The translations under genes and the position numbers were made by a program. A stretch of DNA of 64,000 nt from Eledone cirrhosa (taxonomy: Eukaryota): NCBI GenBank assembly GCA_964016885.1, contig CAXHJY010000962.1, positions 1-64,000 of the forward strand, in the 5' to 3' direction. The notes below the pieces were generated by a model, which did no database searches, was not told the origin of the DNA, and saw only the letters and a list, made by a program, of their open reading frames with translations. Of the stretch, positions 9,034 through 61,017 are shown piece by piece. The first letter of the stretch is position 1; each line of letters opens with the position of its first letter.

Positions 9034-9447
9034 AAAGATGGAGGGAAAAGAAGGAGAAACACTGGGCGTGTTTATGATGTAATACAGAAATATATAAGTT
9101 TATGCTTAATAAATATATCAAGTCTCACTATGAGTGTCTTGACCAGTGCACATGTCTTCAGCAGATGTTTAATACGACCACTAATATATATATATATATA
9201 TACATACATACATACATACATACATACATACATACATACATACATATATATATATATATATATATATATATATATATATATATATATATATATATAATGT
9301 TATACTTTGGGAGGGTCATGTTGCCAATAACAATCACACGCACCAGCTGCATTCACTTCAATATATTATAATAAATTTATAAATTTAGGAATTCATAAAT
9401 TTCCGGTTGGTTGGTTGGTTCCAAAACCAGATGATTGTTTATATATT

Positions 9448-9490
9448 GTCAAAGTTCTTTCGTCACACATTCTGTAACCTCTTCAGTGAC
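9448..9490 (-). ncRNA. Minimal type I hammerhead ribozyme, PLE-A pLTR
   Basis: Reverse complement of GTCA-CTGAAGA-stem II-GAAA-GAAC-TT-TGAC. Confidence 0.75.
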
Positions 9491-9719
9491 TGGGGATTCC
9501 TTTCTTTGTTTTTGTGCCTCTCCTTTGTTCTGTCCTACGCCATCTTGCTTTGTGTGTGTGTTGTGTGTTTAGTTTGCGCATGTGTTACATCCGGGTGTTT
9601 GTGTGTGTTTGTATTTGTTTATTTATTTGTTTATTTACATGTTACTGGTTGGCTGTTTGTTCTATGTGTGTGTGTTTTCATTTTGTCCTTAATTGTAAGT
9701 TGTGATGTTGCTGTTCCAC

Positions 9720-11478
9720 TCATATCCGTTCCGCTATACTACGAGCTGTCTCACCTATGTACACTATATTTTTATCTCTACATTGACCTTCAGTACATCT
9801 TATGCTATATACTACATTTCTAGTTTTACAGTTAATATGAGGGCTTAATTTACAGATTATACATTTCTTATCTATACATGAGGGTCTTTGAAAATGGTAT
9901 GTCTTGCTAATGTGTGTTTTTACGGACGTACCTGGTCTTTCTACTATCTTAATATTGAGTTTATGTTTATTTAGGGCCCTTCTAAATTTGTAAGCTAATT
10001 CGCCTCCAGGGGTTGTATCGATGAACATTACACTCTGGTATTTATTTTTATCATACCACGAGTTTATTCTATTAGCCTTATTCCTAGTTCTTTCTATTCT
10101 ATTCCAAAATTTGCTCCTATACAGGGGGCAGGTCCCACTTGTGTCATTATTTACCATTTTTTCCCATTTGGTTCTGGCTCCTTTATATACTCTGAGATTA
10201 TCTCTCTGATTGTAATCAGAGAACTACATAGGGTGGATGAAGTGTTGTATGTGTCTCTCTAGTTCTTCGGGGTTGCACATGCGGGACACGTTTCTCATCA
10301 CCCGTACCAAATCCGCAATCACTATGTTGATTTTGGTATGGTCCGAAACAGTTGAGTTTCGGTGGATCAGATATTTGGAACTCATGGGTTTGGCATAATG
10401 GGAATGGAGGATTTGTTTTTTGTTATTAATGGTATCTAACCAGAGCTCTGTGTCTAGTACAGGTAATCGATGGTTGGGGTGTTTGCTTGGGTAGTCTATA
10501 GTAACTCTAATAGTCTGGTGGATGGAGTTAGCTATTTGCTGGATGCTTTCCATTGTGTTTTTCTCTAATTCCTGACTTCTATAGTGGGGGTGTTTTAACT
10601 ACGATGTTTATATCATCAACGTAGCGAGAGTACATTATCAGGGTTAAGGGGGTCTTCTAATTGTTCTTTAAGTTTAAGTTTAAGTTTACTGTCCCACCAT
10701 ACCATGAATAGGTTAGCTATGTCGCCTGCAATGCTAACACCAATGGCTGCTCCCTCCTCTTGGGCATATGTTTTTTCCATTAAATTTGAACATATGTTCC
10801 TTAAGGGTTAATTTTATACTGGCCACCATCGCATGTCCATCATTTTCTTTAGTTTATCGTGGTTTTCGGGGGTCCGTATGGCTCTGGTCCACCCGTTCCA
10901 TCTATCTGTGTGGGTTTTCTTGGCCATTGAAATAATGGTAGGTGGTCTGCCACTTGCTAGTCTTGTAGGGCACAGGTTGCTAAGGTCATATGTATCTAGG
11001 TAATCATTATTATATATGAGTTTAAGTAGGACTCGCAGCTCACTGGTATCAATCCCACGGAACTCAACATTGCTCTCACTGATCATTTCTACGCATTTCT
11101 CCACAGCAAAATCCACGTCAAAAGATGGATACAGGGACACAACATCCATACTACCTATTATGCAGTTTGTTAAGTCCCTAGATCGGTTACTCACGCCGAT
11201 TCTGCTGAGGAAGTCCTCCGTGCTGTCACATACATCTGGGGACATTTCAATGATGGGGAGTATGATCAGGGAGAGGAAGTATGAAAGTCTGTAGTTTCTA
11301 GCAATGTTAGCTCCACAGACTGGCCGTGTTGGTGGTCCTGTGACAGGGTAACTGCTCGTTTTATGGTATTTTCGAAGCCCATACAACGCTGGCACGTCAT
11401 TGTTCCAGGCCTGGAAGTTGTTGGCAGTCCTTTTGTTGGCCTGCATTATATTTGTCCGCATCATCATATGTGCATTGT
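9720..11478 (-). pseudogene. PLE-A reverse transcriptase / GIY-YIG endonuclease ORF, frameshifted, with an internal deletion in the endonuclease domain
   Basis: ORF pieces 10814-11467, 10224-10553 and 9720-10157 are colinear with copy 3. Confidence 0.9.
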
Positions 11479-12079
11479 ATATATAAGAAATGTATATAGA
11501 TAATAAATGTATAATCTGTAAATTAAGCCCCCATATTAACAGTAACTAGAAATGTAGTATATAGCATAAGATGTAGTGAAGGACAATGTAGAGATAAACA
11601 AATATAGTGTACATACGTGAGACAGCTCATAGTATAGGGGAACGGATAAATGAAAACTGGCGAGACATTCAAGATAGTAAAGAATCATCTGTACTCTACC
11701 AACATGCTAAAATAGAACATGAGGGTAAATTAGAGAACATAGAAATAAAAATAGAATCTACACACAGAAAAGACGCAATGTTTAGACAAATCACAGAGGC
11801 AATAAACATAAATGAACTCCAACCAAAATTAAATAGAAAACATGAGTGGAACAGCAACATCACAACTTACAATTAAGGACAAACTGAAAACACACACGCA
11901 CATAGAACAAACAACCAACCAGTAACATGTAAATAAACAAATAAATAAACGAATATAAACACACACAGACACCCGGATGTAACACAAGCGCAAACTAAGC
12001 ACACAACACACACACACAGAAACAAGATGGCGTAGGACAGAACAAATGAGAGGCACAAAAACAAAGAAAGGAATCCACA

Positions 12080-57744: not shown

Positions 57745-58998
57745 AGGGTTAAAATACTGGAGCGTGTTGGAGTTAAACACCCTCTTCGTATTATAGAAAT
57801 GACAGTAAAAGGTATAGCTCAATGTAGTTAAACAGAGCCGAAAAATTGAGAGAGTAAAACAAAGAAGCCTTCAATACATCAAAAGTCTTTATTAGCTGAC
57901 AATGTTTCGTCCTATTAAGGACTCATCGGGTCAATTAAAACAACAAGAAGTAATATCGGCAGATACAAGCCGGAAGCTCCGAAGAATATGGAGTGTACAT
58001 ACACTAATGTATTGCAAAAATATACAATAAAAATAATAAACATATATAATAAAAATTACTAAGGATGTATATAACATTAAGAACCATATTACAGATATAG
58101 TCCAAAGCAAAAAAAAACTAGAGCTAAACAAAGGTGGTTATATAGAGCAGGAATTATATATAATACAATGTAATATAATATAATATACCTTTACCAACAT
58201 TAAAATTACAATAAAAATCAAAAGGTACAATATGTATATATGTGCGCACACGTACACACACATACACATACAACAATAAACACATCCATCTTCAACTGCA
58301 CAAATTAAACCTTATTAAGAGTTTGATTATAAAAATAAGCATGATAGGAATGAAAATAATAATAATAATAATACTAATACATCTACCCAATATACATGAG
58401 GTAATAATATGATATAATTATAAGTAGCACATATAATAAATAATAAACAATACAATTATATACTATATAATACAATATAATAGAATAGATAATCTCCGGT
58501 TAATTTACATAAACAATATAGATGTCACAATAATAATATAATAATAATATACTAACATTTATAATATACAATATACTAACATTTATAATAAACAATATAT
58601 AATTGTACTCAAGTTAACATTATATATATATTATATTATATATATATTACATTATATGTATATTATATTATATTACATTGTATAATATATATAATTCCTG
58701 CTCTATATAACCACCTTTGTTTAGCTCTAGGTTTTTTTTGCTTTGGACTATATTTGTAATATGGTTCTTAATTTTATATACATCCTTAGTAATTTTTATT
58801 ATATATTTTTATTATTTTTATTATATATTTTTGCAATACTTTAGTGTATGTACACTCCATATTCTTCGGAGCTTCCGGCTTGTATCTGCCGATATTACTT
58901 CTTGTTGTTTTAATTGCCCTGATGAGTACTTAATAGGACGAAACACTGTCGGCTAATAAAGACTTTTGATGTATTGAAGGCTTCTTTGTTTTACTCTC
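57745..58998. mobile_element. Fold-back element, ~330-bp arms (57850-58185 / 58660-58998), left tail, HHR in each arm
   Basis: Near-identical inverted arms (also visible as twin ORFs 57931- and 58717+). Confidence 0.88.
58912..58957 (+). ncRNA. Canonical minimal hammerhead ribozyme (mirror copy at 57891-57936 minus)
   Basis: AATTGCC-CTGATGA-GTACTTAATAGGAC-GAAAC-ACT-GTC-GGCTAAT; mirror copy has a perfect stem II GTCCT/AGGAC. Confidence 0.85.
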
Positions 58999-59000
58999 TT

Positions 59001-60222
59001 AATATATATTTATATATATATTTATATATATATATTTATAATTATTTATATATATATATTTATATATTATTTATATATATTTATATATATATATATTTAT
59101 ATATATATATATATTTATATATTATTTATATATATTTATATATATATATATTTATATATATATATATATTTATATATATATATATATATATATATATATA
59201 TATATATATATTTATATGTATATATACATATTTATATATATATATACATATTTATATATATATATTTATATGTATATATACATATTTATATATATATATT
59301 TATATGTATATATACATATTTATATATATATATTTATATATACATATTTATATATATATATTTATATGTATATATACATATTTATATATATATATTTATA
59401 TGTATATATACATATTTATATATATATATTTATATGTATATATACATATTTATATATATATATTTATATGTATATATACATATTTACATATATATATTTA
59501 TATGTGTATATACATATTTATATATATATATTTATATGTATATATACATATTTATATATATATATTTATATGTATATATACATATTTATATATATATATT
59601 TATATATATATATATATATTTATATATATATATTTATATATATATATATATATTTATATATATATATTTATATATATATATTTATATATATATATATATT
59701 TATATATATATATTTATATATATATATATATATATATTTATATATATATATATACATATTTATATATATATATATACATATTTATATATATATATTTATA
59801 TATATATATATTTATATATATATATATTTATATATATATATTTATATATATATATATTTATATATATATATTTATATATATATATATACATATTTATATA
59901 TATATATATTTATATATATATATATATATATATATATATATGTATATTTATATATATTTATATATATGTATATATATATATATATATTTATATATATGTA
60001 TATTTATATATATATATTTATATATATGTATATTTATATATATGTATATTTATATATATATATTTATATATATGTATATTTATATATATTTATATATATG
60101 TATATTTATATATATATATATTTATATATATGTATATTTATATATATTTATATATATGTATATTTATATATATATATTTATATTTATATATATTTATATA
60201 TAATTATATATATATATATAAT
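59001..60222. repeat. (TA)n-derived minisatellite (TTTATATGTATATATACATA-containing units)
   Basis: Direct. Confidence 0.95.
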
Positions 60223-60289
60223 ATTAAGCATACTATTTATGGTTATGTATATACTAAAACTTTTTATAGTTATATATATTTTAAACCAT

Positions 60290-61017
60290 AAACAATGAAG
60301 GTCAGTAATTTATTACTACCTTATTACCAGTAAGATAAATAGCTCAATGTAATAACATCAGTTGTTCTACAGAGCAGTTATATAGAATTCACAAGAATCA
60401 AAGTTATGTTCAAAGCATTTATTCACTTACAATTGTTCCATCCAAACCTAGGCTTGGAGTCTTCGGAGCATTTTTAAATGTTTGTACACAAAATTGACCT
60501 CCTTTCCAACGCAAGAGACATATAGATACGTATGTATATATTGATGTACAGTGGTGTGACATATATTATACTATATTATTTCTGTATATCAATTCAAATT
60601 CAAAATCAAAACCAAAATTAAGATTAAAACAAAATTAAAACAAAAATTAAAATACATTCGGCAGTTAACATAGATAATGCAAGAGGATAGTTTGTTAGTC
60701 ATATGTAGTAGTTAGTGTATGCGTTAGTTTACGTGGGGCTGCACGTGTGTCTCATTTATATATGATTATTGTGTGGCAGGGTGCTACATGTAATACAAGC
60801 ACTTTAAGCGTGTAAGTAAGAGTATTATGGAGGTTGTAGTGATAAGGTATCTTTTGTATATAATAAAAAAGTATGTGTGCAGAAAAACAAAAATAAAAAG
60901 GAGAAGCAAAAGAAAGTTATGATTTTCGTAATCGAAGACTCCAAGCCTAGGTTTGGATGAAACAATTGTAAGTGAATAAATGCTTTGAACATAGCTTTGA
61001 TTCTTGTGAATTCTATA
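60290..61017. mobile_element. Fold-back element (arms 60381-60465 / 60934-61017) with an HHR-like motif; relative of 56148-56290
   Basis: CGAAGA-CTCCAAGC/CTAG/GTTTGGAT-GAAA-CAATTG-TA in inverted arms. Confidence 0.72.

Follow-up and report, generated by a model that had tools for sequence, protein, structure and literature searches.

Endonuclease-bearing Penelope-like elements (EN+ PLEs; EN, endonuclease) are known to form complex insertions. PMC3846280 describes adjacent pseudo-long terminal repeats (pLTRs) in inverted orientation, of which one bears a 31-bp tail, and palindromes where they join. PMC8557442 reports a tail of 30-40 bp, often single-ended, and a preference of Hydra elements for (TA)n, and names the origin of tandem and inverted PLE insertions and of the one-sided tail as an open problem. 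The inverted, one-tailed architecture is thus already known from these two accounts; in an in vitro study of another clade (PMC11167929), later steps of insertion were left unvalidated. Here we analyse the PLE insertions in 64,000 nt of Eledone cirrhosa DNA (contig CAXHJY010000962.1, positions 1 to 64,000; this whole stretch is called the window), together with Hydra-type elements from other animals.

In Hydra-clade insertions, both ends lie 6-11 nt before hairpins that are duplicated in the leader, and judging from the sequences it is fairly probable that these hairpins position two reverse transcriptases (RTs), each priming one strand of a cut (TA)n. The duplicated hairpin is apparently an undescribed cis-element within the known architecture, and makes the mechanism testable: conserved and covarying, it predicts both ends within a few bases and offers a direct experimental handle on tail length and symmetry. 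It is also a marker for annotating non-coding Hydra derivatives.

Results

Inverted insertions with a single tail

Nine elements with outward-pointing arms had been listed in the original prediction, which was made from the sequence of the window. Masked self-comparison and pairwise alignments recovered all nine as inverted pairs at about the expected positions, with arms 88-99% identical across 60-550 aligned nt. An extra tail of ~55-120 nt had been claimed for one arm, and exactly one arm is tailed in each of the nine, by 60-118 nt. The proposed (TA)n targeting was confirmed too: a TA-rich flank, defined as at least 70% TA/AT steps within 20 nt, adjoins 15 of the 18 ends, well above a background of 20% of all window positions (3.5% outside long arrays). 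By the same test, 3/9 5′ flanks and 0/9 3′ flanks pass for nine copies of a short interspersed element (SINE).

Identification as PLEs holds, given the RT and GIY-YIG domains, type I hammerhead ribozymes (HHRs), and pLTRs with a tail, in direct or inverted arrangement as in EN+ PLEs. A descriptor for type I HHRs matched the window 15 times and the reversed sequence not once; Rfam Hammerhead_1 gave one window match, with a score under the gathering threshold. Where found, the motifs occupy the strand that points outward in each arm, so that 3′ ends face outward. They are present in both arms of 9298-12293, 18438-20193 and 54150-54530 and in one arm of 57745-58998, while no more than the GAAA-stem III half could be read by eye in the minis and in 60290-61017. 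A miniature inverted-repeat transposable element, or another class II inverted-repeat element, was ruled out, as one arm overshoots by 60-118 nt, HHRs are present and the centres are variable.

Alignments and end-to-hairpin distances upheld the idea of fixed end points, with two fixed internal ends. The placing of one priming event at the RNA 3′ end was not borne out. The long end is also internal, because the copy at 38100 continues past the tail end of 12321-12527, up to a Hydra open reading frame (ORF) start at 38265, and the tandem unit at 26114 continues past the tail end of the 25551 element. Two priming events would be consistent with the in vitro data of PMC11167929. To speak of unrelated families was an overstatement: seven of the nine elements probably derive from a single clade, Hydra, as non-coding forms with a common cis-element, and the other two (PLE-A) are of another type. 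The term fold-back fits the shape and probably not the mechanism.

Beyond the nine, one-tailed pairs were found at 25551, 43137 and 49430, to which 32980, with a tail-only arm, can be added; 54845 is probably another, its tail split off by SINEs. Window pairs 61041-62736, 49093-49904 and 49338-49665 were left out of the counts. Long arms 32321 (minus strand) and 34889 (plus strand) were counted as separate insertions and could be a two-tail case. For 32980, a cross-family chimera was considered and dropped in favour of a short arm with its own tail-only arm.

By the motifs given in section 11 of PMC8557442, PLE-B would belong to the Hydra clade, as would fragments at 25287-25466, 38265 and 61725-62285, and the proteins that they match carry Hydra-clade motifs; the PLE-B frame (29622-30437) has CNSRIKSNC, with its second Cys changed, CKLC and CKHR, in line with the Hydra linker and C-terminal pattern (CxCX5C, no CCHH, CxxC, CxH), and homologues of the Hydra-type frames carry CNCR-x4-C, RWK and DKT. 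The family of the 12323 and 48882 mini elements is the one with a direct ORF link: its tail is found again at 38100, where it leads on to a Hydra N-terminus at 38265 (tblastn E 0.006). HHR type and hairpin suggest the same assignment for the other non-coding listed elements. Hydra proteins used as query had no matches in viral contigs.

A duplicated hairpin in Hydra-clade leaders

De novo motif finding detected a short motif common to the tails of several window families that cannot be aligned with each other. The external sample comprised 96 loci with Hydra-type elements, from host-derived contigs. Defining the leader as the segment from HHR to start codon, 47 ORF starts with 140 nt upstream yielded 35 non-redundant leaders from other animals. 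Between HHR and ATG, they contain GCUC-helix-(2-nt bulge)-GAGC-ACU in duplicate. With a strict pattern, two hairpins were found in 19 leaders, one in 11 and none in 5, compared to 0/34 ORF-start controls with any hairpin; dinucleotide shuffles of the leaders had one hairpin in 1.4% and two in 0.01% of cases. Spacing is 54-74 nt from hairpin to hairpin, and 19-55 nt from hairpin 2 to ATG. The general form is RCUC…GAGY-ACU, window families often having ACUC/GAGU instead of GCUC/GAGC. The hairpin loop of the 18438 element (20112-20135) is letter-identical over ~20 nt to hairpin 2 of a locus (L010, 437-461) on an unrelated contig. Loci L079-L096 are animal PLE sequence, several with TA arrays, in contigs filed under bacterial metagenome-assembled genomes, which is probably host contamination.

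The inner helix was examined in hairpins chosen solely by their outer stem and 3′ ACU. Among 102 hairpins with a 2-nt 3′ bulge, 93% have a Watson-Crick pair as the first inner pair beyond it (CG 66, UA 27), versus at most 18% with bulges of other sizes. Both inner pairs are kept in a fraction of 0.69, against 0.17 with permuted partners, and double-sided changes number 40 versus 15.7 when shuffled (0/500 as high; alignment of 44/87 plus-strand hairpins). The inner helix covaries, with counts inflated by relatedness and four outer pairs invariant through selection.

In the window, a relaxed descriptor gave 9 matches, all within tails, and 0 in the reversed control. A model trained on external hairpins only placed tails in its top five ranks, with E <0.001 for one window family only. 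Rfam covariance models found no hairpin family in the window, and only two chance-level matches in six leader loci. Two other explanations of the tail motif were rejected. As a protein motif (I/V-E-Y/C) it would fall outside the coding sequence, full Hydra ORFs starting 19-55 nt after hairpin 2, and the motif lies in a base-paired stem; as a splice site it fails since GT is not conserved.

Both ends lie just ahead of a hairpin

External TA-bounded HHR ends, measured from HHR to (TA)5+, form two groups: out of 36, 20 fall at 44-66 nt and enclose no hairpin (some of these from other PLE types), and 14 fall at 106-132 nt and enclose exactly one, with none at 67-105 nt and 2 outliers. Distances to the hairpin itself were obtained from 50 external end rows, of which 25 were without template, 8 had a hairpin-less template and 17 an unbroken hairpin-bearing one. 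In this last class, 16/17 ends sit 6-12 nt before a hairpin; when three internal TA runs are removed, 14/14 sit at 6-11 nt, in ~11 families. Window short ends are 6-9 nt before hairpin 1 in 9/10 cases, and both testable long ends are 6 and 11 nt before hairpin 2. Short and long ends thus have the same distance, 6-11 nt, to hairpins 1 and 2 respectively, the distribution is bimodal, and the tail is one hairpin unit, i.e. the distance between hairpins. A UA step stands 6-8 nt ahead of the hairpins, beginning at -8 in 32% and at -6 in 40%, versus ~8% farther upstream, which agrees with the 1-8 nt of TA microhomology by which short ends overlap the flank.

The Hydra-type features of the window are the following.

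12323 to 12525: mini element, short arm on the left, tail 12444-12525; its centre is a palindrome just before the HHR GAAA (stem II position)
12453 to 12476, plus strand: hairpin 1 of this element, ACUC/GAGU variant, 8 nt past the short end; E 7e-4 with the externally trained model
18441 to 20193: non-coding inverted element, arms 99% identical; tail 20104-20193, hairpin 20112-20135
25551 to 26655: inverted element, new to the list, with a partial tandem (565-nt unit) on the minus strand; hairpin 1 occupies 25613-25592 and hairpin 2, immediately beyond the long end, 26103-26088
28708 to 30760 (right end approximate): PLE-B, a 5′-truncated coding element, putatively Hydra-type, with inverted pLTR; its short-arm end is off-site, adjoining PLE-A sequence
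32980 to 33106: inverted short arm and tail-only arm without overlap, the latter beginning at about the base of hairpin 1 (read by eye)
38100 to 39275, plus strand: unit-length monomer between TA runs, beginning at the short site, with a short end near 39275; inside are hairpin 1 (38106-38129), hairpin 2 (~38184-38205), a Hydra ORF start (38265), an HHR-like motif and a SINE inserted at 38699
43137 to 43428: inverted element, new to the list, 76-nt tail, hairpin degenerate
48638 to 48859: mini element, tail on the minus strand (48712-48638), hairpin 48706-48687
48882 to 49087: mini element of the 12323 family, hairpin 49015-49038; the left end at ~48882 corrects 48891
49430 to 49985: inverted pair, new to the list, tail on the minus strand, hairpin starting at 49531
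54147 to 54531: inverted element with an HHR in both arms and a 118-nt tail; the short end, 33 nt before the hairpin, is an outlier
54845 to 55890: inverted element, new to the list; tail 54845-54925, apparently displaced by SINEs that went into the short site
57745 to 59000: inverted element with HHR, 101-nt tail on the minus strand, hairpin 57838-57817
60284 to 61011: inverted element, 100-nt tail on the minus strand, hairpin 60375-60342; the left end at ~60284 corrects 60290

HHR-bearing solo arms ending in TA are found at 13820, 32300, 38048, 56710 and 56146, where they end 55-67 nt after GAAA, the short-site distance, and at 14180, 14455 and 24167, which were read by eye. At 13828-14178, two outward-facing short arms from different families lie between TA arrays.

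The same end positions would be expected if the hairpins acted in DNA, with EN resolving a longer intermediate, tandem or circular, by cuts 6-11 nt ahead of a hairpin or cruciform; ends would then be cut sites, not RT starts. The tail is attributed to EN-mediated resolution in PMC8557442, PMC11167929 recalls the D. virilis tail as required for EN cleavage of plasmids, and the 38100 unit monomer starts exactly at the short site, where, in another element, SINEs appear inserted. In the inner pairs, the excess of G-U over A-C is only 16 to 8. We nevertheless hold this explanation to be unlikely, since tail borders are RT starts in vitro in PMC11167929, and the motif is strand-specific, with a one-sided bulge and one hairpin in only 2/35 reverse-complement leaders.

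The TA microhomology at short ends suggests another possibility, namely that the long site is the start of either arm and one of the tails is lost later through a deletion from the UA-rich patch inside the element to the (TA)n of the flank, the hairpins serving translation or packaging, as the place of hairpin 2 close to the ATG might also indicate. This deserves very little credence: it leaves unexplained why long ends lie 6-11 nt before a hairpin and why double tails are rare, and the asymmetry is already there in pairs 98-100% identical (external L083, window 18441 and 25551).

The one-tail rule outside the window

Among the 25 external inverted matches listed, 8 are HHR-bearing Hydra end pairs. 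Six are one-tailed, one (L082) has two short ends and one (L043) was not classed. Two further pairs are L087 8695-8808, one-tailed, and L080, with two long ends. The rule was therefore kept in 7/9 resolvable external pairs; it is strong, not absolute, and the "always" of the original prediction stands for the nine listed elements and fails for 2/9 pairs elsewhere. The L082 element, at 1961-6520, is enclosed in a larger inversion, with host flank duplicated to either side. In four cases (window 32980, L043, L080, L087) the tailed arm consists of the tail alone and stops in or at hairpin 1, as expected if the enzyme coming from the long site meets a protein seated there.

These arms bear on self-priming, in which one long-site cDNA would snap back on a palindrome and copy itself to a fixed stop at the short site. 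Priming of this kind from such palindromes is argued for in PMC3846280, and would suit the palindromic centres of the 12323, 48638, 48882 and 31120 elements and the arm identity of up to 99%. It appears quite improbable here, as the tail-only arms of window 32980 and L087 8695-8808 have no sequence in common with their partner arm, and the tail-less arm of 9298-12293 has 1.6 kb missing from the tailed arm, although a later central deletion could mimic this. Moreover, PLE-A arms within an element (95.3%) are not clearly closer to each other than to paralogues (91.7-94.1%).

Proposed mechanism

Returning to two RTs positioned by the two hairpins, beyond the geometry of the ends we infer the following scheme. 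A tandem or read-through RNA would carry pLTR-HHR-hairpin 1-hairpin 2-ATG. Each hairpin would be bound by one protein, and the GIY-YIG domains would nick both (TA)n strands. Target 3′ ends would then pair with the UA or UAU ahead of each hairpin and be extended, giving one short-site and one long-site cDNA. The two 5′-truncated cDNAs would finally be joined head to head, often via a palindrome such as HHR stem II. In vitro data from another clade support such a scheme, both target strands being extended and two internal RT starts bounding the tail (PMC11167929). A more specific version, that the duplicated RNA hairpin is a ruler, a dimer binding both copies on one transcript and each subunit priming one (TA)n strand 6-11 nt upstream, is a possibility on which we remain slightly sceptical. 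If true, a single insertion event hard-wires head-to-head arms and a one-sided tail, which would give a sequence-encoded explanation of the inverted PLE structure and a minimal cis-element mobilising non-coding passengers.

Several observations weigh against this reading. In PMC11167929, neither homology between primer and start site nor a strand preference for either start was found. Two external pairs depart from the one-tail rule, L080 with two long ends and L082 (2193/6038) with two short ends, the latter within a larger inversion including flank; the 54150 short end is 33 nt from its hairpin; and the Hydra hairpin motif was not found in PLE-A. As the strict pattern was derived from the same leaders, its counts express enrichment, not prediction, and related sequences are not independent. 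On the seven families of the earlier list alone, de novo motif finding was not significant (12/100 shuffles as good), and the significant run (0/60) used tails chosen partly post hoc, with more restarts for the real set. With the externally trained model, five other predicted window hairpins have E 0.13-8.4, amid seven probable chance matches. The decayed leader at 38100 folds no better than shuffles (z -0.5), with outer stems absent from its best fold, and the best fold of L031 forms hairpin 2 only.

PLE-A, a second type with the same two-end pattern

PLE-A has weak RVT_1 matches and, along 39576-41761, an RT followed by a C-terminal GIY-YIG, as in EN+ PLEs; the GIY-YIG motif was read by eye, Pfam giving no match for it. 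Among named proteins, the closest is an RT protein of Octopus vulgaris (66%), which would point to a cephalopod host. The CX4CxxC linker reads CIDKKCIIC, two Cys lie within the GIY-YIG core and a His pair was read by eye; by the linker and CCHH motifs given in PMC8557442, PLE-A would be of Neptune/Nematis type. A Naiad element (N-terminal EN, no HHR) was ruled out, EN being C-terminal and an HHR present. The PLE-A features are as follows.

9298 to 12293, both strands: PLE-A inverted insertion (putatively Neptune-type), with a tail-less arm at 9298-11482 (minus) and a tailed arm at 11495-12293 (plus)
9298 to 11482, minus strand: tail-less arm, from RT to the start of EN, with an internal deletion
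9486 to 9452 (minus) and 12084 to 12118 (plus): HHRs of this insertion, from the descriptor search
12233 to 12293, plus strand: PLE-A tail, 60 nt, without Hydra hairpin; the tail frame is open after an upstream ATG (MTLPKYNNIGFNTRF... in the 31123 copy)
31120 to 31813: second PLE-A inverted insertion, short arm 94 nt, central palindrome 30 nt, tail 31750-31810

The predicted common end of the short arm in these two insertions was found: the ends agree within ~4 nt, after AAGTATAACA. PLE-A has the same two-end pattern, for which the signal would be other than the Hydra hairpins. Its tails (12238-12293 and 31755-31810) can fold as a single weak hairpin, the ends pairing (GUUUC/GAAAC, -6.8 kcal/mol), and this predicted fold is a possible analogue of the Hydra signal. 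The PLE-A end pattern had no matches in metagenome contigs. A third insertion, 26990-28706, is made up of two ORF pieces that do not overlap and run in opposite directions; within the EN region its left arm stops at (TA)n, almost where the long arm of 31120-31813 begins.

Other repeats of the window

Positions 81-6511 hold ~920 copies of the 7-nt satellite TCAGTAA (87% matches). One SINE family has at least 12 copies (8328, 24345, 33126, 38699, 43470, 43700, 48236, 52045, 52678, 54930, 55134, 55891); the copy at 24345-24500 has a short fold-back of its own, and those at 54930-55270 appear seated in a PLE short site. An HHR at 36883-36947 (minus strand) adjoins a decayed frame (36850-37551) resembling that of a long interspersed element (LINE), and a decayed LINE RT (RVT_1) with C-terminal zinc fingers lies at 46166-47681.

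Comparison with known systems

In LINE-1 twin priming, two target strands prime on one RNA, which produces a 5′ inversion; the first primer is at the poly(A) end, the second at variable internal sites. The insertions described here are alike in two target strands, one RNA and an inverted product, and differ in having two fixed sites, both of them internal, and arms that usually overlap.

The EN+ PLE complex insertions of PMC3846280 and PMC8557442 have the same head-to-head inverted 5′-truncated arm, tail at one end and HHR in the pLTR, as well as palindromic centres, partial tandems and a (TA)n bias. The PLE-A tail, like that of Pen2a_Av, extends the N-terminal frame. In contrast, window tails measure 60-118 nt instead of the published 30-40 nt, and the Hydra-type tail lies in the 5′ leader, upstream of ATG, with a conserved hairpin that goes unmentioned in the parts of those accounts drawn on here. 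Hydra-clade PLEs as presented in PMC8557442 share a CxCX5C-type linker, no CCHH, the (TA)n preference and an HHR; neither the hairpins nor their connection with the two ends is annotated there, the words "hairpin" and "stem-loop" being absent from the supplement and "stem-loop" from the main text. Published Hydra consensus sequences do carry the hairpins: Hydra-1_Ajap has two, and Hydra-2_Amil and Hydra-2_Ajap end with one. We did not find them described in the PLE and retrozyme literature covered, including the portions used of PMC4209133, PMC7229834 and bioRxiv 10.64898/2026.07.22.740005, or in Rfam; older PLE reviews, PMC5850863, Repbase reports and the figures of PMC11167929 were beyond this scope and may bear on the point.

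Poseidon_Ac in vitro (PMC11167929) resembles our elements in having two internal starts that bound the tail, an AT-rich target, extension of both strands and a predicted dimer. Its starts are in the ORF, at an AC-rich stem-loop and without primer homology, whereas window and other Hydra ends precede a hairpin present in two copies and share a TA overlap with the target; inverted arms are not addressed in its main text. Finally, non-LTR retrozymes (LTR, long terminal repeat) are, like most of the elements described here, non-coding HHR-bearing derivatives of PLE pLTRs (PMC7229834; bioRxiv 10.64898/2026.07.22.740005). They differ in that retrozymes are direct tandems with intact HHRs, while the elements of the window are mostly inverted and its mini elements keep half an HHR.

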